Shown here piece by piece: positions 39,302 through 48,144 of a DNA stretch of 64,000 bases. Under the pieces are notes generated by a model. The model saw only the letters and a list, made by a program, of their open reading frames with translations, was not told the DNA's origin and did no database searches. How positions within the stretch are numbered: position 1 is the stretch's first letter; every line of letters begins with the position of its first letter. Source of the DNA: Cyanobacteria bacterium auto_48_18 (GTDB lineage: Bacteria > Cyanobacteriota > Vampirovibrionia > Obscuribacterales > Obscuribacteraceae); NCBI GenBank assembly GCA_036170915.1, contig JAVHQC010000030.1, forward strand, positions 32,001-96,000. Reading direction: 5' to 3'. Made by a program: the position numbers and the translations under genes.

Positions 39302-39333
39302 AAAAAAGCCTCGCTCACCGCGAGGCTTTTTTT
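39302..39333. terminator. Bidirectional intrinsic terminator between the sigma gene and the respiratory operon
   Basis: AAAAAAGCCTCGC-TCACC-GCGAGGCTTTTTTT. Confidence 0.9.
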
Positions 39334-39510: not shown

Positions 39511-39933
39511 TTATTTTGCGGCCGGTTTAGCAGCGGCAGCTGGTTCAACCGGAAGCTTGCGCACGAAGCTTACGAATTCTTTGGCTTCAGCCAAAAATCT
39601 ATCTTTCTGAGGACGGGAGAGCCAGAGAGCGAGCACGCGACGACGATCAACTGTTTTCTTCAAACCTGGTGGTCGTTGTCCAAGAAGACGTTCGCGAATC
39701 ATGCGGTTGCCTTCGCGATAATAACAATCGCCAATCTGACAACCGGTAACGATCACACCAGCAGCACCAGATTTCATCGCCGCTTCAATCATCAGCGGTT
39801 GAATCATGCCGCTACATGGCAATTTGACTACATGCAGGCCATCAATTTCTTTCACTTCGCCCTGGGCGGTGCAAACTGAATCGAGATCAGCAGCACGTTC
39901 GCAGATGAGAGTGATTACTTTTTGTTCGGACAT
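39511..39933 (-). CDS. mvhD: MvhD/FlpD-type [2Fe-2S] protein (hydrogenase iron-sulfur subunit family)
   Basis: Four Cys: LICER, LPCSG, GCQIGDCYYREGN. Confidence 0.88.
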   Translation of the reverse strand: MSEQKVITLICERAADLDSVCTAQGEVKEIDGLHVVKLPCSGMIQPLMIEAAMKSGAAGVIVTGCQIGDCYYREGNRMIRERLLGQRPPGLKKTVDRRRVLALWLSRPQKDRFLAEAKEFVSFVRKLPVEPAAAAKPAAK

Positions 39934-39976
39934 TACCTGTGTACCTTTGTTGTTTGTGACCCTAAGCTACTGTCTT

Positions 39977-41143
39977 TTATGCACCGGGTTTAGCTTCAGC
40001 CAGAGCCCGAATTTGAGCAGTGACATCAGTATCGAGCAAGTTCGGCAAGTCAATGGCATCGAAAGCACATGCACCCACGCAAACTCCGCAAGCAGAGCAA
40101 CGGTATGGTTTGACGGTGGCCAGCAGTTTGAATCTTGAACCAGCTGGTGCCGGCACCATTTCAATGGCCTGATAAGGGCAATCGAATGAGCAGAGGCTAC
40201 AGCCGACGCATTTTGTCAGCACCACTTCTGCAGCCTCAATAGGGTTAGCGGCTTTGTACAAATTAGGCAGCGGCACCAGAACTAAACCGATGGTGGCACC
40301 AATCATCAGCACCCAATAGGTGACGAGATCAACATGGGCCATCAGCCAGTAAGGGAAGAGGAAGAACCAGTCGATATCAAAGCTGGTTGGAGCTGAGTTG
40401 ATATCGGCCATTTTGCCGCTGGTGATTGGAAAAGCAAATACAAAGAGCAAGAGTACAGCCATGAGCATATAGTTGATGGCTGGTGGTGGCGTAATTACTG
40501 GTCTGGTCATGCGCACATAGTGCATCCACAAACCAAACAACAAAGTGAAAGACAAACCGATGTGAATAAAGAGGAAGTTTGAAAGTGTCAGGTTTGTAAT
40601 GGCGGTGCCATTCAAGAACCATGCTTTAAGACCAGGCCCGACTACAGGCAGAGCATCAAAAGCACTTACAGTCATACGGGTCAAAACTAATGAACGCTCG
40701 TCCCAAACCAGGTAATAACCGGTTTGACCGACAAAGAGCACCATCAGCAGTAGCACGATACCTGTCACCCACTGAATCCAGCGGTATTGACGGTAGCGGT
40801 CTGTCACCCAAACACGCAAAGCGTGCAACACAATCGTAATCACCATGGCATCACCGGCGTAACGGTGGATACCACGAATAACCGCACCCATAGGCAACTT
40901 GTCGGTAATGTAGTCAACCGATGTCCAGGCGTTGACTAGATTGGCAGAGAAATAAGCATTATCGATGGTGGGAATGTAATAAGCGAAAAGCAAAAGACCT
41001 GAGAGGAATAAGACCCACAGGTAGAACTGAGGCAGAGCGCCGTGATAATAGAAAGGATTGTACTTATTGCTGATGACAGCATTAGTGCCTTTCTCAATTG
41101 TCAGCGCTAAGTCGGTCAGGCCTTTAGGTATCGACGTGTACAT
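39977..41143 (-). CDS. Cytochrome b (four heme His) fused to a C-terminal 2x[4Fe-4S] ferredoxin domain
   Basis: GIHRY…LHAL, FIHI…MHY, WVTG, TGYYLVWD; CVGCSLCSFDCP and CSACGVCVGAC; GGGAG RBS before ATG 41143. Confidence 0.9.
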   Translation of the reverse strand: MYTSIPKGLTDLALTIEKGTNAVISNKYNPFYYHGALPQFYLWVLFLSGLLLFAYYIPTIDNAYFSANLVNAWTSVDYITDKLPMGAVIRGIHRYAGDAMVITIVLHALRVWVTDRYRQYRWIQWVTGIVLLLMVLFVGQTGYYLVWDERSLVLTRMTVSAFDALPVVGPGLKAWFLNGTAITNLTLSNFLFIHIGLSFTLLFGLWMHYVRMTRPVITPPPAINYMLMAVLLLFVFAFPITSGKMADINSAPTSFDIDWFFLFPYWLMAHVDLVTYWVLMIGATIGLVLVPLPNLYKAANPIEAAEVVLTKCVGCSLCSFDCPYQAIEMVPAPAGSRFKLLATVKPYRCSACGVCVGACAFDAIDLPNLLDTDVTAQIRALAEAKPGA

Positions 41144-41189: not shown

Positions 41190-41543
41190 TTATTTCTTAA
41201 CCGGCAAAATAGTTTTTTCTTCGGCTTCTTCACGGCCGACAGCTGCAATACCAATGGCGGCCGCGATCATGGCCACACCCATAACGAGCGAATAAGCATA
41301 GTCACCATAACGTGACTCTGCTCCTGATTTTTTCAAATATTCAGTCCAAGAAGCTCCCATACTTGCTACTTGATCATAGTTAGGCAAGGGCAAAAAGAAA
41401 TTCTCATTTGTCCATCTGAGCCAGAGCGGCCAGTTATCGAAAGCACCATTCATGCCAAGCTCAGCCCAGGGCATTAGCCCCGTGCATGCCAGGCATACGA
41501 CAGCTCCTACGACTACTAGAACAACGTTAATTGTCTTATCCAC
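41190..41543 (-). CDS. Two-TM hypothetical protein in the respiratory operon
   Basis: GTG start with GAAAGGA RBS; two hydrophobic helices. Confidence 0.7.
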   Translation of the reverse strand: MDKTINVVLVVVGAVVCLACTGLMPWAELGMNGAFDNWPLWLRWTNENFFLPLPNYDQVASMGASWTEYLKKSGAESRYGDYAYSLVMGVAMIAAAIGIAAVGREEAEEKTILPVKK

Positions 41544-41973
41544 GGTCGATCCTTTCTTGTGCTTCAGAATCTGATGACTTTTCACCAGCGCTTTTGTTCA
41601 CGCTTGCTAGTTTGTAATATATTTTGTCGAATAGAGGAATTTTGCGAGTGCCGTCATTTTTCGATTTTTCCTCGGCATAGATAAAGAAGGCTTGCACACC
41701 GATTAAGGCTACAGTGAGAACACTGCCGGCTATGACATATGCCACCGCAGACAGTGACAAACCATTCTGAATTTCTCTTGTGCCTTCAAAAAACCATGAC
41801 AGAGTAATCACCGAAAAAACAAAAGCGACAAGCTTCAATGACAGTTTGATTTTGAAAGTAGGCTTGCCATGAGAAGCGCCGGGATCTTTTTCAGACCCGC
41901 CATGGCTTTTAATTTCGGCGACGCTTCTCACTTGAGACTTCTTCTCTCCATTGTTCTTATCTTGCTTAGACAC
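41536..41973 (-). CDS. Two-TM hypothetical protein in the respiratory operon
   Basis: Starts immediately after the cytochrome b stop; two hydrophobic helices. Confidence 0.75.
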   Translation of the reverse strand: MSKQDKNNGEKKSQVRSVAEIKSHGGSEKDPGASHGKPTFKIKLSLKLVAFVFSVITLSWFFEGTREIQNGLSLSAVAYVIAGSVLTVALIGVQAFFIYAEEKSKNDGTRKIPLFDKIYYKLASVNKSAGEKSSDSEAQERIDRG

Positions 41974-43845
41974 CTAAGCTGCTGCCACCGGAGCGGCAGG
42001 TTTAGGCGCTTCGGCCAGACTCTTTTTCACCATATTGGCTTGGAAGGCTGCAAGCAAGCAGGCTACACCAGCCAGCGGTCCACCAATCATCCACCACCAG
42101 TCCACAGGCGGCACGGTGAGCGGATATCCGCCCTTAACCAGGCCAGGAGTGAGTCTATCCACCAGGGTGCAATAGTCCCAGGTCCAGCGGTTGTTGACCA
42201 TGAAGTCAATTATGCTGATGTATTCAGGGTGAGGCCCTTTAACAGGATCGGTAAATTTGATGGCACTAAAGGCACCATTAGGTCCTGCTGGTGTTTCAAA
42301 GGTTGGAATAAAGCGAGTAACGATATCGAGAGGTCCCTTGGTCTGACAAAGTCTTGCAAGTTCTTCAAGATCAGCTTTAGCAGCCGGCTCACCCAACACT
42401 TTGACATAGCCAGGATCAAGAGTAACGTGATAATTCCAGTACTCTTTGTTAACCGGCACGCCTGAATTTTTCGTACTGTGCAGTTTGCGCACAATTGCTT
42501 CCACTTTATCTGCGGTATCACCCATGGTGGGTCTGGCAATGCCGTAGAGTGCAGCGTGACCCATAGGGTCAATGAACATTTCAGTGAGGGCCATATAGTA
42601 GTAGGTGTAGCCCACGAAGGTCTGAATGGCGCAGATGGCAAACATAATCATGGCGGGCATAAAGCCTTTGGCTTTTTCCTGCATATTTTTGTTAGTCAGC
42701 ATCAGCACTGCCTGCCAGATAATACCGATGTCGATAGTACCGTAGAGGAAGGTGCGCCAGAATGGCGGGTCATAGTGAATATCGGCAATGTTGACGATAA
42801 TCAAATAAGAGAAAACAATCCAGCAAGCCGCTCCCATAAAGGTGAGCATGAGAATAAACGGCCGCTTCATGATGTTCTTTTCGTGACCGGTAATGGCTGA
42901 GTCTAAGAAAGGCAAAGCAATTACTGATACAGGAATAATCATGGTGATGTATGTTGCCACCACCGGCTCCAGATACTTGTACATCTGATACAAGCCAAGG
43001 AAATACCAGTCAGAAAGAATCGGCAACGGAGTGACATCTGGATCTGACCGTGAACCTTGAGCGGCTGGGAGCGCGACTGCCACAAAAGCAATCATCAAAA
43101 TTAGAACCCAACGCTTTGTCCAGTTCAAAGGCACCCGCACATAAGCATTGTGGAAGAAGTAGATTTCCACAAAAATCAGCGGTATCAATGAAAAGGCCAG
43201 GTGCAGTGAGAAGAATCTAGTCATGGTGTTCTGAGTAATAGCAGCACCACCACCAAGCAAGACTTCGGCTGTATTCCAACCTAAGTGCAATGATTTATAG
43301 AGAGGCTGATAGAAGTCGCCCATGACGGCGAACTGATCCATATAAGTCGGGAAAGTAGCAAATACCTTGGTCGCCCAGAAGGCGCGCTGATTCCAGATCA
43401 ATAGATATCCCGACAGTCCTGAATACATGGCGAGAAGCAAAGTCACCAGAGCAATGGCGATATTGAATTCTTTCGATGGTTTGTAATCGGCATTGATAAA
43501 CATGCGATAGAGGCGCATGGTGGCAGCGATGATCATGGCGTCTGCACCATACTTGTGCATGCCTCGCATCAGCCCGCCAATCGGGATGCCGTTTTGAATA
43601 TTGAGAATCGAATCGAAGGCAGCTGACTTAGTGGGCACGTACCACATGATTAAAATCAGGCCAGTGGCCATGACTATGAACCAGACCAGATAGAAAATTG
43701 GCCCTAGTGCATAGAAAGGGTTGGTTCTCGCTTCGACCTGGTGATGCTCATCGAAAATATCGATGTTGTTGATGCGAGTTTTAACCCAGTCACCAGCAGC
43801 AGTGAGAGTGCTCGCAATGCTTTTATCTTGTACTGAACTAGGCAA
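41974..43845 (-). CDS. Cytochrome b of a Rieske/cyt b complex lacking both heme bH His, with C-terminal extension
   Basis: RGMHKYGAD, SGYLLIWNQRAFWA, TRFFSLH, SDWYFL (PEWY-like); TTG start with GGAGG RBS. Confidence 0.9.
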   Translation of the reverse strand: MPSSVQDKSIASTLTAAGDWVKTRINNIDIFDEHHQVEARTNPFYALGPIFYLVWFIVMATGLILIMWYVPTKSAAFDSILNIQNGIPIGGLMRGMHKYGADAMIIAATMRLYRMFINADYKPSKEFNIAIALVTLLLAMYSGLSGYLLIWNQRAFWATKVFATFPTYMDQFAVMGDFYQPLYKSLHLGWNTAEVLLGGGAAITQNTMTRFFSLHLAFSLIPLIFVEIYFFHNAYVRVPLNWTKRWVLILMIAFVAVALPAAQGSRSDPDVTPLPILSDWYFLGLYQMYKYLEPVVATYITMIIPVSVIALPFLDSAITGHEKNIMKRPFILMLTFMGAACWIVFSYLIIVNIADIHYDPPFWRTFLYGTIDIGIIWQAVLMLTNKNMQEKAKGFMPAMIMFAICAIQTFVGYTYYYMALTEMFIDPMGHAALYGIARPTMGDTADKVEAIVRKLHSTKNSGVPVNKEYWNYHVTLDPGYVKVLGEPAAKADLEELARLCQTKGPLDIVTRFIPTFETPAGPNGAFSAIKFTDPVKGPHPEYISIIDFMVNNRWTWDYCTLVDRLTPGLVKGGYPLTVPPVDWWWMIGGPLAGVACLLAAFQANMVKKSLAEAPKPAAPVAAA

Positions 43846-44407
43846 TTGAACCAGCCTCCAACGCAACCACTTGATACGTTTCGCCTACTCTCTTGATCTC
43901 AAATTTCCGCGGTGGACGTGGTGCAGGACCGCTCACCACTTTACCGGCCTGAGCAATATCGTAGACGCTCAAGTGGCATGGGCAGGCAAACACTGGGCCA
44001 GCGGGTTTGAAGTTGTAACCTTTAGCGCATTCATCAGGATCTTTGACGAAATTGAAGATGCAACCAAGGTGCGGACAGATGCGGCTGTAGGCCACCACAT
44101 CACCAGTGGGCAATTTGACGATGAAACCAGGAATTTTGCGAATTTCAGCGCCTTCAGGGTTGTACTCAACGTACTTCTGATTGAACATGAAAGGCAGGCA
44201 GGTCCATGGATCTGGAAAATCTTTGTCTGTGTATGTAGGAATCGGCGGCTCGGCCAATGGTTGGTCTGATTCACCAAGAATGTCGAGCGGCTTTAGTGTC
44301 GGTCTGAGATATCTGAGAAACGGTGATATCAACAGCCCGAACGTGGCGGCCAGCGGTAAGGCTGCTACCGTCTTTAATATGACCCTTCTTCTAACTCCGT
44401 CTTCCAT
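43838..44407 (-). CDS. Rieske [2Fe-2S] protein of a bc-type complex
   Basis: Twin-Arg N-terminus plus TM; CPHLGC and CPCHLSVY; GPAPRP. Confidence 0.93.
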   Translation of the reverse strand: MEDGVRRRVILKTVAALPLAATFGLLISPFLRYLRPTLKPLDILGESDQPLAEPPIPTYTDKDFPDPWTCLPFMFNQKYVEYNPEGAEIRKIPGFIVKLPTGDVVAYSRICPHLGCIFNFVKDPDECAKGYNFKPAGPVFACPCHLSVYDIAQAGKVVSGPAPRPPRKFEIKRVGETYQVVALEAGSIA

Positions 44408-44431: not shown

Positions 44432-45334
44432 CTAGGTCTGCGGCTTACTTAGATTAGACTGCTCGCCTTTTTCTTTACTTTCTTTCTCTTCTTGGTCTTC
44501 TTTGACTTGACGAGCATGAGTAGCAACTTCGGAAGCATTGCTTTCGTGGAAGTGACGAACGAAGCCTACTAGCTTCCATATATATGGTTCGTCAAAGGTA
44601 ATTTTCTTAGCTTTGTCTGTTTTGCCAAGGAAATTAGGCATCCCTTCCCACTTTATACCGTGAGCGATGTGATCCCACAAAACTTGATCGGTGCGATCAT
44701 AAAACCTTGGGAAGTTTTGGAAGTTAGCCGGTGCTGGCTCAAGTACGTTGCCCTTCATGAGCGGGCCGTTGCCATAACCTTTAGCACCGTGGCAGACTGC
44801 ACAGTTTCCGCCGAAGACCGGCGATATATCTGCTATTTCAGTATCGGTCAGCGGCGGAGTCGAGAGGCTGCGCACATAGAAAACCATGTTCCAAATTTGC
44901 GGTGGACGCAATTTTTGCTGCACTGTAGGGTGCTCGAAACCACCTTTTGTTGTTTCGCTTTCTTTACCGAATGTAATGAAATCGTACTGCTCAACAGGCT
45001 TTTGTTTTCTGCCCCAGTCTTTGCTGGAGAAATCAACGGTGGCCTTACCGGCAACAGGTTTACCATCAGCTCCGTGGCAGCTGGCGCAATTTTGGGCTTC
45101 GTAGACGCCTTTGCCATCAGGAACGGAAGGATCGTCATTGGGCCAGATCGGTTCACGATCGCCAAGAGTTACCTTTGCGGCAACCAGACCATCATCAGAA
45201 GCAGGCAAAGTCACCTTACTGTTGGTACAAGCCGAAAGGCCAACCACAAAAGGAATGATTGCCAGCAGCAGTGAAGCAACCGGGGAGAGATTTTTATGGT
45301 TACTTAAAACCATTTTGGGCTTACTAAGTGACAT
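44432..45334 (-). CDS. Diheme cytochrome c, probable lipoprotein
   Basis: LSAC lipobox; CASCH and CAVCH. Confidence 0.9.
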   Translation of the reverse strand: MSLSKPKMVLSNHKNLSPVASLLLAIIPFVVGLSACTNSKVTLPASDDGLVAAKVTLGDREPIWPNDDPSVPDGKGVYEAQNCASCHGADGKPVAGKATVDFSSKDWGRKQKPVEQYDFITFGKESETTKGGFEHPTVQQKLRPPQIWNMVFYVRSLSTPPLTDTEIADISPVFGGNCAVCHGAKGYGNGPLMKGNVLEPAPANFQNFPRFYDRTDQVLWDHIAHGIKWEGMPNFLGKTDKAKKITFDEPYIWKLVGFVRHFHESNASEVATHARQVKEDQEEKESKEKGEQSNLSKPQT

Positions 45335-45340
45335 CTTCCT

Positions 45341-45517
45341 CTAATAACCAAAGAAGGGAATCCAGGACACCGCTGCATAGACAAAAATCAGGATGAAGCA
45401 AATCACCAGAAAAGGTGGCGGGGCACCTTCACCGATACGGTATTCAGAGACCACTTCGTAGTGGTCATCATCAACCGGTGTATTCGGAGTAACTATTTTT
45501 TTGACTTCTTCAGCCAT
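45341..45517 (-). CDS. Small single-TM protein (MAEEVKK…WIPFFGY)
   Basis: AAAGGG RBS; C-terminal hydrophobic helix; operon position. Confidence 0.7.
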   Translation of the reverse strand: MAEEVKKIVTPNTPVDDDHYEVVSEYRIGEGAPPPFLVICFILIFVYAAVSWIPFFGY

Positions 45518-45533
45518 TTTCCATATCCCTTTA

Positions 45534-45773
45534 TTAAGCTTCGCCTTGAGCACGAAGTTTTTCTACAGCAGCTTTGGCTTTATTGCCTAGCACCAGCTCT
45601 TCGCTATCGTCGAGCATGTCAAATTTGACTGATTCAAGATCTTCAAATTCGCCATTGCGAAATGCCCAGAGTACGCCAACTACAGCAATAGCAAAGAAGA
45701 GTCCACAAATGCCGAATGCAATCCATAGGCCAGAGCTGAGGCTGGCTCCATTGAGAACACAATTAGGACACAT
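45534..45773 (-). CDS. ccoS: cbb3 oxidase maturation protein CcoS/FixS
   Basis: TM followed by WAFRNGEFEDLE. Confidence 0.85.
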   Translation of the reverse strand: MCPNCVLNGASLSSGLWIAFGICGLFFAIAVVGVLWAFRNGEFEDLESVKFDMLDDSEELVLGNKAKAAVEKLRAQGEA

Positions 45774-45784
45774 AGTACTCTCCT

Positions 45785-46729
45785 TTATTCTTTACCGTGG
45801 TGCGGTTCATAAACCTGTTTGGTCAAGACTGGAAGATGTGTAGGTTCAACAACATTGAGTTGATCAAGATTGTTGACGGTCACTTCATGATCTTTCGGCA
45901 GAGTTTTCAAATATGCCACCAGATACCATCTTTGCTCTTCAGACAATACTGATTGGAAACGCGGCATTCTTGTGCCGGTCACCCCTTCTGAAATACGGTA
46001 GAACCAATGTTCATCAGGATACTGTTTGTAATAATCGCGAGTCAGATTTGGTGGTTTTTTCTCAAGAGTGATGGCGTTAGGGCCATTGCCCAGACCTTCT
46101 AAACCATGGCAAGCGGCACAGTTCTGAGTGTAGATACCACGACCAGCGTTAGCTGCGGCATCAGATGCGGTATCAACGTTTTTGCGTGCTGCAAGGCCGC
46201 GACCTTGTGGAGTAGTGGGCAAATATTCATCAGGCGGAGTAACAAAAGCAGTAACGGTGCGCTTATTACCAAGAGTCTGGATGTATTGCACCAGGTCGTT
46301 CATGTCACGTTCAGACAGATAGCTGAAGCTCGGCATAATTGAACCAGGCTTAACTGCACGTGGTGAAATCAAGTGAGCCTTTTGCCATTGCGAAGGGAAA
46401 CGTCCGCCTTCATTAGTAAGGTCAGGCCCTGTGCGAGCGGTACCCAGTTGGTGCGGAGTTTCGTAAACATAGTCGCCTTCTTTGACGAGCGGCCCGTAGC
46501 CACGATCTTGAATACGAGTAAATTGCGTATGGCAATAGAAGCAACCTTCGCGTACATATATTTGACGACCGCGAGCGGCATCACCAACAGCTAGTGGAAT
46601 TACTTTGTAGTCGTTGCCGCGTCCTGATGCTTTTGGATTGAAAAGCACCATGGGCATGAGCACCGTGGAGAAAATAATGATGAAGAACGTGGTGACAATG
46701 CCAATCGCACCAAGTCGGTAACCGTACAT
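45785..46729 (-). CDS. ccoO: cbb3 oxidase subunit II (CcoO) fused to a second cytochrome c domain
   Basis: GRQIYVREGCFYCHTQ, GTARTGPDL, SIMPSF; second heme CAACH with TRMPRF. Confidence 0.93.
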   Translation of the reverse strand: MYGYRLGAIGIVTTFFIIIFSTVLMPMVLFNPKASGRGNDYKVIPLAVGDAARGRQIYVREGCFYCHTQFTRIQDRGYGPLVKEGDYVYETPHQLGTARTGPDLTNEGGRFPSQWQKAHLISPRAVKPGSIMPSFSYLSERDMNDLVQYIQTLGNKRTVTAFVTPPDEYLPTTPQGRGLAARKNVDTASDAAANAGRGIYTQNCAACHGLEGLGNGPNAITLEKKPPNLTRDYYKQYPDEHWFYRISEGVTGTRMPRFQSVLSEEQRWYLVAYLKTLPKDHEVTVNNLDQLNVVEPTHLPVLTKQVYEPHHGKE

Positions 46730-48144
46730 TAGACCTTAACCTCCCGAGCCTTGACTGTCGCATCGGCTGAAGCTCTGGGTGTATAGAGCGTTTTAAATGT
46801 GTTGTATGCAAACAAACACTGACCAGTGACAATCATGAAACCGCTAATTGCTCTCAAGAACCAGTAAGGAGGTAGCGCATTACTCCACTGGTCCACTGGA
46901 TAACCCAGCGCCCAACCGGCAGATTGCACCAGACCAGCTGTTGTTAGAGACGTCATCATCAATAAGAAGCCTAAGAATTTGAGCCAGTAGTGCGCTCTAA
47001 TCAGCCCTTGACTGTGCCATTCACGGCCAGTCAAACGCGGCATGCAGTAATAAATTGATGAGGTAAGAATGAATGAGAACGTTCCCAGCAGCGCTAAGTG
47101 AGCGTGGCCAACTACCCATTGAGTAAAGTGGATATACCAGTTAATCCAGCGAGTAGCCTGGAACGGACCTTGAGTACAAGTGATCAAATAGAACATGCAT
47201 GAAGTAACGGCAAAGCGCAGTGGCAAATCGGTGGCCACTTGTCCCCATTTTCCGCGCATGGTCATGAAGAAATTGGTGAGCACGGTAAGAACCGGAACCA
47301 ATAAGAAAATCGACGAGATTACGGCGATGGCTTTTAACCACTCAGGCACAGGCGATTGCAAAATGTGGTGCGTGCCGGTTGGTGCATAAAACAGAGCAAT
47401 GCCCCAGAAGCCCAACATGGACAAACCATGACTATATAGAGGGGCTTTGGTAAAGCGTGGAATCAAGAAATACATCATGCCGACACCAACAGTGGTGAAC
47501 CACATGCCAAGAATATTATGGCCGTAGAACCAACCGATGATGGCGTCATTAAGACCAGGCAAAGCAACGAAAGTGCGCTGGCCGATTACGTATACAAGCG
47601 GGAACCAGAAAAGCGATCCGAGGAAATACCAGAGTGATACGTAGAGCTTTTTCACTTTACGCTGCACGATGGTCATATAAATATTGAAAGCAACAGAAAC
47701 GAGACCGATAACAACAATAACGTCGAGAATGGCGCCTAATTCGGCATATTCTCGACCTTCAGTGTTGCCATTCAATAGTGTGCAGAACGCTCCGATCATG
47801 AGGATGTTCCAGGCCCACATCGTAAAGTTGCCCAGTCGCTCGCTGTACAGTTTGGTTTTACAAAGCGTCGGCACCATGTGGAACATGGAACCTACGTAAC
47901 CCATGGACAACCAGCCGATGGCTACGGCGTTCACGTGCCACATTCTTAAGTGCGGCATAGATAGTTGCGGCACGCCGCGAATCAGGTCGGGCATAGAAAA
48001 TTCGGTTCCGGCAAGCATGCCGGCGCCCATTCCCCACAACGACCACCAGAGCGCCGACAGGAAGAAGTTGCGACTGGCGCTGCCTTCCTTGGCGCTGAGA
48101 AATCTTTCTAGCAAACTTGTTTGTGCCAAACTATTGATAGACAC
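46729..48144 (-). CDS. ccoN: cbb3-type (C-family) heme-copper oxygen reductase subunit I
   Basis: HVNAV, REYAE, WFYGHN, GTHH, WVVGHAH. Confidence 0.95.
   Translation of the reverse strand: MSINSLAQTSLLERFLSAKEGSASRNFFLSALWWSLWGMGAGMLAGTEFSMPDLIRGVPQLSMPHLRMWHVNAVAIGWLSMGYVGSMFHMVPTLCKTKLYSERLGNFTMWAWNILMIGAFCTLLNGNTEGREYAELGAILDVIVVIGLVSVAFNIYMTIVQRKVKKLYVSLWYFLGSLFWFPLVYVIGQRTFVALPGLNDAIIGWFYGHNILGMWFTTVGVGMMYFLIPRFTKAPLYSHGLSMLGFWGIALFYAPTGTHHILQSPVPEWLKAIAVISSIFLLVPVLTVLTNFFMTMRGKWGQVATDLPLRFAVTSCMFYLITCTQGPFQATRWINWYIHFTQWVVGHAHLALLGTFSFILTSSIYYCMPRLTGREWHSQGLIRAHYWLKFLGFLLMMTSLTTAGLVQSAGWALGYPVDQWSNALPPYWFLRAISGFMIVTGQCLFAYNTFKTLYTPRASADATVKAREVKV

Follow-up and report, generated by a model that had tools for sequence, protein, structure and literature searches.

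The window analysed is a stretch of 64,000 nt from a member of the Obscuribacterales (Vampirovibrionia) whose genome is 86% complete, a value that qualifies every gene absence stated here for the host genome. The operon under study lies on the minus strand of the window and comprises the following features.

39302..39332, listed on the + strand only: hairpin of 13 pairs, preceded by an A run and followed by a T run, lying between mvhD and a convergent sigma-factor gene
39511..39933, - strand: MvhD/FlpD-like [2Fe-2S] protein, 140 aa, PF02662
39977..41140, - strand: cytochrome b #2, 387 aa, ATG start, PF00033 at residues 23-211
39980..40237, - strand: C-terminal domain of cytochrome b #2 (about residues 302-387), predicted 2x[4Fe-4S] dicluster and terminal helix 370-383
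41190..41585, - strand: short membrane protein of two helices, without a family match; its true start is possibly further downstream
41536..41973, - strand: second short membrane protein of two helices, likewise without a family match, at a conserved position
41974..43866, - strand: cytochrome b #1, 630 aa, bL ligands H104 and H222
43838..44407, - strand: Rieske [2Fe-2S] protein, PF00355, twin-arginine-like N-terminus, boxes CPHLGC and CPCHLSVY
44432..45334, - strand: diheme cytochrome c, CcoP-like, two CxxCH, lipoprotein-like N-terminus
45341..45553, - strand: small one-helix protein, no Pfam match, conserved in 62/80 loci
45534..45773, - strand: CcoS/FixS maturation protein
45785..46729, - strand: CcoO fused with a second cytochrome c domain
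46729..48144, - strand: CcoN, subunit I of a C-family heme-copper oxygen reductase, six His and helix-VII Tyr253

From its sequence the hairpin is likely a two-way terminator closing the operon, and a promoter scan performed at chance level (9 found, 11.3 expected). The place of the ORF at 41190..41585 is occupied by a small two-helix ORF in other families too. The six histidines and the helix-VII tyrosine of CcoN are kept in 61 of 61 homologues; its match to TIGR00780 falls below the curated cut-off of that model. Both Cys/His boxes of the Rieske protein were present in 66/66 homologues, and menaquinone genes are present in the host genome. The protein encoded at 45341..45553 is possibly CcoQ-like or an N-terminal piece of CcoP.

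The operon is the complex III-IV operon of Melainabacteria/Vampirovibrionia, published as 'petB, petB, petC' next to a heme-copper reductase of type C (PMC6349859). In the passages concerned, that paper annotates the genes as b6f subunits, whereas both cytochromes b described here are without the heme cn cysteine (CxGG motif) at the expected place and neither groups inside the PetB clade of a quick tree. Passages of the same paper do not mention MvhD, a ferredoxin tail or missing bH ligands, and no description of MvhD or of bH loss in this operon was found in the open-access papers searched.

Two unlike cytochromes b

Cytochromes b #1 and #2 are both long forms and not a split b6 plus subunit IV. 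In bc1 and b6f the Qo-bearing cytochrome b has four heme histidines, whereas cytochrome b #1 possesses only H104 and H222. Its bH positions are taken by R118 and Y236/F237, and E234 is invariant. The helix-B position is arginine in 69 of 71 close homologues (the other two have gaps) and arginine or lysine in 19/19 sequences from five other families, and no homologue covering the helix-D position has histidine there. H239 was considered as a stand-in bH ligand and rejected, being histidine in 3 of 71 homologues. The Qo motif of #1, LPILSDWYF, is kept in 71/71 and 19/19 sequences of the same two sets; its counterpart in #2 has decayed.

Cytochrome b #2 has six membrane helices (A-F) and all four heme histidines, H92, H106, H193 and H207, which are kept in 75/75 close homologues and in 20/20 sequences of a second set. 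An additional histidine, H33, is likewise invariant, as are D114 and R210 (75/75 homologues). A bc1-type Qi His/Asp pair was not found in #2, at the positions that we take to form that site. Over 20 operons the conservation of the Qo elements was 0.98 and 0.93 in #1 versus 0.56 and 0.49 in #2, and that of the N-side elements 0.64-0.75 in #1 versus 0.77-0.91 in #2. Since #1 has no heme bH ligands, #2 would be the only N-side outlet. The initial annotation had placed an electron port on the bH side of #2, and this part of its picture is supported. Cytochrome b #2 has kept the ligands of both hemes and the N-side surface. What the annotation overlooked was the loss of bH ligands in #1, which changes the mechanism.

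Among the pairs folded, #1-#2 and three controls, the predicted heterodimer scored 0.62 and the best control 0.00; the mark for this score is reached by 116/157 solved pairs and 2/215 mismatched pairs, and the score may echo resemblance to solved cytochrome b dimers. Separate runs agreed in at least 88% of contacts with a partner pLDDT of at least 71, and the modelled interface is formed by helices A and D around the bL ligands. The modelling thus supports a heterodimer of cytochromes b #1 and #2.

The two proteins might instead belong to independent enzymes, #1 serving the cbb3 oxidase as a quinol oxidase module with one heme and no Q cycle, and #2 with MvhD being a homodimeric ferredoxin:menaquinone reductase. 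The cytb2-mvhD pair has indeed been relocated together, away from the operon, in one genome (G086) and lies on a contig other than that of the operon in a second (G173), and the quick tree places #1 and #2 in clades that are separate and far apart. We nevertheless regard this arrangement as most improbable: Qo decay in #2 is the mirror image of bH loss in #1, the two cytochromes b are gained and lost together across genomes, and the heterodimer model passes. The separate clades also leave a recent duplication giving #1 and #2 unsupported, in a tree that is midpoint-rooted and from which the #1 sequences of two families (f9 and f5) were lost at the domain filter. The atlas matches of cytochrome b #1 are generic cytochrome b clusters, and those of the 180-aa tail are clusters without a name. 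The asymmetric pair was traced within Vampirovibrionia.

The iron-sulphur tail, MvhD and their family

Cytochrome b #2 ends in two CxxCxxCxxxC motifs (C311/314/317/321 and C348/351/354/358), in the region that the initial annotation had read as an HdrA-like ferredoxin domain. The peptides are present, and when a 21-sequence profile of the tail was compared with the PDB, only 3 of 177,635 sequences passed at 1e-9 in a single stretch, namely two HdrA C-termini and FwdG. A single-sequence search did not separate HdrA from PsaC or TYKY, so that the profile was required. The HdrA2 model gave 47 bits on the tail versus 22 on the host genome's own ferredoxin, and within the HdrA2 profile (NF040770) positions 571-644 are matched by the tail and 669-771 by MvhD, in the same order. 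NuoI too matches 21/21 tail sequences at 1e-9. At the level of sequence, the tail is therefore best matched by HdrA C-termini, as proposed and ahead of generic ferredoxins, by a modest margin.

MvhD docks on the C-terminal ferredoxin region of HdrA and relays electrons in Mvh/Flx-Hdr complexes. The gene lying 43 bp downstream of cytochrome b #2 was correctly recognised as mvhD: PF02662 matches above cut-off (E 2.5e-19), and C11, C40, C65 and C70 align with C13, C42, C67 and C72 of the MvhD in PDB 5odc_D, which we take to be the [2Fe-2S] ligands. All four are cysteine in 74/74 homologues and 20/20 orthologues; a fifth, C21, is kept in 20/74 homologues. Neither a membrane helix nor a signal was seen in MvhD. 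Its core is basic (net +7, with a median of +3 in 20 orthologues) and has conserved basic residues; the ferredoxin of the host genome is acidic. Of the 80 related loci, 76 have mvhD as the following gene and four stop within 90 bases of the match, so the pairing is not due to chance.

The module had been taken for a one-off graft onto an oxygen-reducing chain. It is instead, by sequence comparison, the split form of a widespread uncharacterised cytochrome b-ferredoxin-FlpD family, in which the order six-helix diheme cytochrome b, dicluster, MvhD is kept, here over two adjacent genes. Cytochrome b, dicluster and MvhD occur in a single chain in 117 of the 150 closest family representatives, and these natural fusions bear out the physical link proposed between tail and MvhD. 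The MvhD profile matches the fused domain at 99.9%, all four MvhD cysteines are present in 84 of 105 fused relatives, and the family forms one clade with a support of 99 in the quick tree. A nested sister clade has a 2Fe-2S/FAD/NAD module on the same cytochrome b chassis. One fused relative was predicted as a rigid unit (pLDDT 96, pTM 0.92), and fold searches of both models returned cytochrome b matches only. The membrane domain of the fused relative aligns to the bc1/b6f cytochrome b fold through helix F only (Z 24, rmsd <3 Å over ~257 residues). Helix F of cytochrome b ends on the N side, and the tail would thus be cytoplasmic, the topology that the initial annotation had assumed. None of the three outcomes that would have told against that annotation was encountered.

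Fused relatives mostly adjoin eNOR-like oxidases and have no Rieske gene. Since most members of the family are without a Rieske partner, the module needs no Q cycle. Their surroundings include SCO, heme o synthase, heme A synthase and a degenerate oxidase subunit, and in 63 of 80 loci they are accompanied by a protein of ~180 aa with a His-Met-x-Cys pattern. Such neighbours would suit an assembly or sensing module for heme-copper oxidases, passing cytoplasmic electrons to copper/heme maturation or reactivation, or sensing O2, outside the main electron path. A comparable transfer of cytoplasmic electrons across the membrane for oxidase maturation has been ascribed to CcoG, for which the host genome gave no match; CcoS is encoded in its operon. 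This role is very unlikely for the host pair, as the ~180-aa partner is missing from the host genome and from 20/20 Vampirovibrionia loci, and the conserved loss of bH in #1 would go unexplained, with Qo left without an outlet unless #2 is catalytic.

Direction of electron flow and comparison with known systems

An architecture of a heterodimer with a cytoplasmic wire is highly probable. The #1/#2 heterodimer would replace the usual cytochrome b homodimer, and menaquinol would be oxidised at a single Qo site located on #1. One electron would pass through the Rieske protein and the cytochromes c to the cbb3 oxidase and O2, and the other from bL of #1 to bL of #2 and on to bH of #2, which is the sole heme on the N side. 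Together, the HdrA-like 2x[4Fe-4S] tail and docked MvhD would form a three-cluster wire from the cytoplasm to bH of #2. A small acidic carrier, presumably ferredoxin reduced by 2-oxoacid oxidoreductases, would bind the basic MvhD, and the wire would supply the second electron for N-side menaquinone reduction. In b6f the corresponding N-side role is ascribed to heme cn together with ferredoxin/FNR, and in Mitchell's original Q cycle to the donor 'd'. A bc1 engineered to run on inter-monomer transfer is described as working in vivo (PMC4152375). As a whole, the statement that this is an asymmetric menaquinol:O2 complex III-IV with cytoplasmic electron entry has, in our estimate, an even chance of being correct.

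The initial annotation had left exit and entry side by side. Ferredoxin entry is now the more likely; transfer from ferredoxin to menaquinone is 320-360 mV downhill by textbook values. The reduction of ferredoxin by exit loses ground, being uphill in 7 of 8 bookkeeping cases with assumed potentials. An exit port would let the low-potential electron bifurcated at Qo leave through bH, tail and MvhD to NAD(P)+, via an unknown flavoprotein, or to flavodoxin, driven by O2 and with the same heterodimer. In Hdr arms the direction is given as dicluster to MvhD to FAD (PMC12350162), which maps to outward flow in #2-MvhD and speaks against entry. The missing canonical Qi residues of #2 point the same way, and in the same bookkeeping 4 of 8 cases make NAD+ reduction level or downhill, a reaction that a preprint proposes for related eNOR-operon cytochromes b (10.64898/2026.01.22.701106). 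The host genome also has a Hox hydrogenase/diaphorase, on a contig other than that of the operon; its NiFe large-subunit matches are confined to one contig (C11). The operon, however, encodes no subunit that binds flavin or NAD, large subunits of Hox size or of another soluble type were found in 6 of 32 operon-bearing genomes, and heterotrophs with 2-oxoacid:ferredoxin oxidoreductases would need little uphill reductant. Exit is accordingly judged fairly unlikely.

As the initial annotation had noted, no hydrogenase or Hdr gene lies within the window. The host genome yielded no FeFe hydrogenase and no full-length match to the HdrA2 model; it has one FlpD gene and, elsewhere, one CCG gene with its own dicluster. 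Hydrogenase, named earlier among the donors, is not a constant one and was rejected as an obligate partner, a NiFe match over cut-off being found in only 14 of the 32 operon-bearing genomes. POR_N occurs in 32/32 of them, a count that indicates availability and not linkage. The port as sole ferredoxin entry was also rejected: NuoD-like genes are present in 31 of 32 genomes and the host genome has no NuoF apart from HoxF, so a better-coupled entry for ferredoxin probably exists already.

The three clusters could also act as an internal buffer, storing the first electron until the second comes and letting menaquinone be reduced in a single two-electron step that avoids a reactive semiquinone. 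This substitute for heme cn would need no outside partner, and the module does travel without a partner gene. The CxGG cysteine is missing from both cytochromes b, in b6f-type complexes heme cn is accepted as the store (PMC5600118), and storage would help a complex that has a single Qo and a single bH. One cluster would be enough for storage, though, and a three-cluster wire with an exposed MvhD cluster suggests a partner, as do the conserved basic residues on MvhD; the wire also occurs in family members without a Rieske protein. Buffering is hence considered unlikely, and entry from ferredoxin remains the preferred reading.

With bc1 and b6f the operon shares the Rieske protein, a PEWY-type Qo motif and, in the model, the helix A/D dimer interface. 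Its two cytochromes b, in contrast, are unlike each other; three b hemes are predicted where bc1 and b6f have four, along with a single Qo and a cytoplasmic Fe-S wire, and heme cn, subunit IV and canonical Qi residues are lacking. The order and four cysteines are those of the HdrA C-terminal dicluster and MvhD arm (Mvh-, Fdh- and Elp-Hdr, and the HdrA2 fusion NF040770), yet the FAD domain, HdrBC, MvhAG and FdhAB are absent from the operon and a b-type heme protein stands in their stead. Anammox bc complexes combine Rieske/cytochrome b with an NAD(P) oxidoreductase subunit, a proposed link of the low-potential branch to the cytoplasm. Theirs is a flavin/NAD module and not HdrA-MvhD, and they are not known to be tied to an O2 reductase or to have a bH-less cytochrome b partner. 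The eNOR-operon cytochromes b of the preprint belong to the same family by tree and gene context, combining cytochrome b with Fe-S next to a heme-copper enzyme. They are, however, single chains without a Rieske partner, and in place of H33 they carry Leu, Ser or Thr. Passages of the preprint leave the MvhD domain unnamed, and we infer that its subfamily H is the cytochrome b-ferredoxin-FlpD family.

Taken together, the sequences suggest that complex III of Vampirovibrionia appears to contain two unlike cytochromes b, one with an HdrA-related Fe-S wire that probably takes electrons from the cytoplasm. On balance we favour a naturally occurring Rieske/cytochrome b complex of obligate asymmetry, where all low-potential electrons cross from bL to bL and an HdrA-MvhD arm wires the N side to the cytoplasm, working either as Mitchell's original Q cycle with ferredoxin or as an O2-driven bifurcation exporting reductant. 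It would be class-wide in the sister group of oxygenic cyanobacteria, and its wire family would also serve eNOR-type enzymes.

It has long been asked in bioenergetics whether electrons passing between the halves of complex III are of importance in nature, and whether the N side can be fed by a cytoplasmic donor; both questions have so far rested on engineered bc1 fusions and on the debated binding of ferredoxin/FNR to b6f. What the operon seems to encode is a natural enzyme where lost heme ligands force such transfer and where the wire is dedicated and genetically removable. The respiration of the closest non-photosynthetic relatives of cyanobacteria is thereby re-read, these genes not being b6f subunits, and the operon offers a handle on the widespread cytochrome b-ferredoxin-MvhD family found beside eNOR-type enzymes.

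Operon organisation and the two cytochromes b

The operon comprises 11 genes on the minus strand with intergenic gaps of -29 to 49 bases, cytochrome b #2 and mvhD lying at its end, followed by a 13-pair hairpin 3' of mvhD:

48144 to 39511, minus strand: in order, ccoN, ccoO-cytochrome c fusion, ccoS, 70-aa protein, diheme cytochrome c, Rieske, cytochrome b #1, two small membrane proteins, cytochrome b #2, mvhD
41974..43866, minus strand: cytochrome b #1, 630 aa
39977..41140, minus strand: cytochrome b #2, 387 aa
39511..39933, minus strand: mvhD, 140 aa

The nearest named relatives are Obscuribacter and other Obscuribacterales. The six His and the helix-VII Tyr of CcoN were conserved in 61 of 61 homologues, indicating that the chain terminates in an O2 reductase. 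Both futalosine-pathway matches were present in the source genome, so the quinone is probably menaquinone. Contig C11 of this genome carries a complete hoxEFUYH-like cluster for an NAD-linked NiFe hydrogenase, together with a maturation protease (L164:8522-13936). It contains the only NuoF-like gene of the genome, and several diheme cytochromes c and universal stress proteins are encoded on either side. An orphan Rieske paralogue on contig C6 (L165:8821-9423; 43% identity to the operon's Rieske protein) has altered boxes (CTHCRH; CPCACDLS, second His gone) and no cytochrome b nearby.

Cytochrome b #1 retains the bL ligands H104 and H222, while the bH positions are occupied by Arg118 (69/71 close homologues, with two gaps) and Tyr236/Phe237 (Tyr236 in 71/71). 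Among 19 operons from five other families, compared by complete gene order for nine loci and by coordinates for the others, the first bH position was Arg in 13 and Lys in six, a second His in helix D was absent and PLPILSDWYFL was unchanged throughout. In #2 the four heme His and an extra H33 were conserved (75/75 and 20/20) and the Qo motif had decayed. Across 20 operons, conservation of the Qo elements was 0.98 and 0.93 in #1 versus 0.56 and 0.49 in #2, and that of the N-side elements 0.64-0.75 versus 0.77-0.91. In Obscuribacterales #1 (596-649 aa) ends in an extra domain of ~160 aa, in which no heme motif was found, and a further helix (window 41974-42600); in other families it measures 441-517 aa and lacks this domain.

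Co-folding of #1 with #2 scored 0.62 against 0.00 for the best control, reaching a mark met by 116 of 157 solved pairs and two of 215 mismatched pairs. Contact agreement between runs was at least 88%, partner pLDDT at least 71, and the predicted interface involved helices A and D. The model supports a heterodimer, although the score may reflect mere likeness to solved cytochrome b dimers, since such structures already exist. That #1 and #2 with MvhD are two separate enzymes would fit genome G086, where the cytb2-mvhD pair is separate from the rest of the operon, but is very improbable given the co-folding result.

The iron-sulphur tail and MvhD

C-terminal to its membrane domain, cytochrome b #2 has two CxxCxxCxxxC motifs, and the following gene encodes an MvhD (C11, C40, C65 and C70), a protein described as a connector from Hdr complexes (available text of PMC6019823). 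Related genome loci numbered 130; in the best 80 of them, mvhD followed the #2 homologue in 76, the remaining four stopping within 90 bases; ccoN was found in 62, and all 18 without it had less than 4.3 kb of upstream DNA. This co-occurrence bears out the pairing of MvhD with #2 noted in the initial annotation.

A PDB search with a single tail sequence did not discriminate HdrA from other ferredoxin matches. With a 21-sequence profile, only two HdrA C-termini and FwdG passed 1e-9 as a single stretch; polyferredoxins topped the same search by summed repeats, the best single domain scoring ~31 bits. The HdrA matches extend into a terminal helix, modelled at residues 370-383. Within NCBIfam the best E-value was for HdrA2, with NuoI near, each matching 21/21 members. 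In the source genome the HdrA2 model gave 47 bits for the tail versus 22 for a free ferredoxin, and consecutive stretches of it were matched by the tail (571-644) and MvhD (669-771). The tail is thus HdrA-like, as first annotated, by a modest margin.

Helix F of bc1 cytochrome b ends on the N side. A fused relative, in which cytochrome b, ferredoxin and MvhD domains form one chain, aligned to solved cytochromes b across residues 14-288, through helix F; the predicted model of #2 has the same six membrane helices, and neither a signal nor a membrane helix was seen in the MvhD sequence. The tail and MvhD are therefore predicted to be cytoplasmic, which bears out the side originally assigned. MvhD is basic and the genome's ferredoxin acidic.

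The wider family and its distribution

Among the 150 best representatives after 50% clustering, 117 combined the cytochrome b with an MvhD-like domain in one chain, and 146-148 retained the four heme His; one fused relative was predicted to form one rigid unit (pLDDT 96, pTM 0.92). By these comparisons #2-MvhD belongs to a wide family, and the earlier description of a module grafted onto this oxygen-reducing chain was abandoned. Subfamily H has been listed as large proteins with a cytochrome-b domain, function unknown. Available sections of the Ferrigenium preprint (10.64898/2026.01.22.701106) describe eNOR-linked relatives as cytochrome b plus Fe-S, with NAD+ reduction proposed.

Gene context was surveyed for the fused genes in 80 metagenome loci, the best of at least 554 and many of them short. 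The fused genes had as neighbours heme-copper subunits, SCO, the synthases for heme o and heme A, and a degenerate oxidase subunit; none of the 80 loci showed a Rieske motif. Gln-Gln and no Tyr followed the active-site His in 34 of 37 subunit-I-like ORFs (35 loci). The loci are termed eNOR-like because their gene set agrees with the eNOR operon of the preprint (section 6.5.2). H33 occurred in 0/72 scored fused genes. A partner of ~180 aa was present in 63/80 eNOR-like loci and 0/20 Vampirovibrionia loci; the latter count speaks against the wire (tail plus MvhD) being an assembly or sensing module, a reading considered improbable. Four loci encode a further cytochrome b that has 2Fe-2S, FAD and NAD domains at its end and nests within the cytochrome b-ferredoxin-MvhD clade in a quick tree.

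In these pairs (L139, L142, L155, L163) both cytochromes b have four His, and a second kind of cytochrome b heterodimer is possible. The ~180-aa protein (L155:7648-8178; C-terminal 180 aa of P0146), either fused to or downstream of the cytochrome b-ferredoxin-MvhD gene, is unnamed, without a Pfam match, and has one helix and a His-Met-Arg...Cys-x-Arg-x-Arg pattern, possibly metal-binding. A degenerate heme-copper oxidase subunit I with a weak COX1 match adjoins fused genes (L155:8178-9575, L144:10946-12319) and is probably the 'eNOR scaffold' of the preprint. Of 105 fused relatives in alignment A5, 20 had Pro, Ala, Gly or Ser in place of the fourth MvhD Cys, reflecting either changed cluster ligation or alignment error; the first two Cys were invariant. 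In P0164 an SCO domain is fused N-terminally to a cytochrome b-ferredoxin; P0246, P0259, P0272 and P0273 instead carry a CxxCH at the C-terminus.

Matches to #2 at 1e-20 occurred in 179 of 301 genomes of the class. By manual count 20 of these are weak and fall on other cytochromes b, so that 159 remain; none of the 98 genomes of family f6 matched. In a phylum sample 3/251 genomes matched at 1e-40, all inside the class. Among 34 hand-chosen genomes, mostly with weak or no #2 match, seven had a #1 orthologue (ccoN in six, FlpD in six) and the remaining 27 had neither ccoN nor FlpD, a pattern read as a package and not as a statistic because kin are non-independent. Five genomes without the cbb3 package (G029, G007, G025, G142, G013; L200-L204) carry a different four-His cytochrome b of 367-409 aa. 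The operon also appeared, at 68-93% identity to the window, in records titled as other phyla (L010, L038, L069, L078), probably misbinned or mislabelled contigs.

Proposed electron flow and relation to known complexes

The residues and gene order of the operon and the fusions in its relatives are observed. Menaquinol would be bifurcated at Qo of #1, the high-potential electron passing to O2 and the low-potential electron from bL1 to bL2 and bH2, making dimer crossing obligatory; an engineered bc1 sustains growth through bL-to-bL crossing (PMC4152375, as available). The tail and MvhD would prolong the chain between bH2 and the cytoplasm.

The module had been viewed as either an exit or an entry port. 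With assumed potentials, those of menaquinone taken from the literature, entry from ferredoxin was 320-360 mV downhill, exit to ferredoxin uphill in 7/8 cases and exit to NAD+ borderline, positive in 4/8. Entry from a cytoplasmic donor, ferredoxin, via MvhD is given an even chance. Genes for 2-oxoacid oxidoreductase occurred in 32/32 operon-bearing genomes tested and a NiFe match over cut-off in only 14/32, so that hydrogenase, a donor also suggested, is no constant partner. An outside donor is part of Mitchell's first Q cycle, and in b6f the role ascribed to heme cn is either electron storage or acceptance of an electron from ferredoxin (available parts of PMC5600118 and PMC7908018). Neither #1 nor #2 appears able to bind heme cn, which would suit a wire acting as an internal electron store; we regard this as unlikely.

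Three observations count against entry: the Hdr arm runs from dicluster to MvhD to FAD (PMC12350162, in part), a NuoD-like gene was found in 31/32 operon-bearing genomes, and no canonical Qi residues were seen in #2. The Hdr direction and the NAD+ cases favour electrons leaving through the wire to the cytoplasm, which the uphill step to ferredoxin makes rather unlikely; the available legend in PMC12350162 places those Hdr clusters at the N terminus, whereas the present tail matches the C terminus.

The complex would resemble the bc complex in its mode of working and differs in that the Qo-bearing #1 fails the four-His test; it is neither a b6f nor an Hdr complex. The operon of petB, petB and petC with a type C reductase is already in print as III-IV (available text of PMC6349859). 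The portion of PMC11214002 available contains no description of these cytochromes b, and in the open-access literature, to which the search was confined, neither MvhD nor the missing bH ligands were found described for this operon. The tail, the adjoining MvhD and the loss of the bH ligands in #1 are real and conserved, and they probably belong to one asymmetric Rieske/cytochrome b complex.
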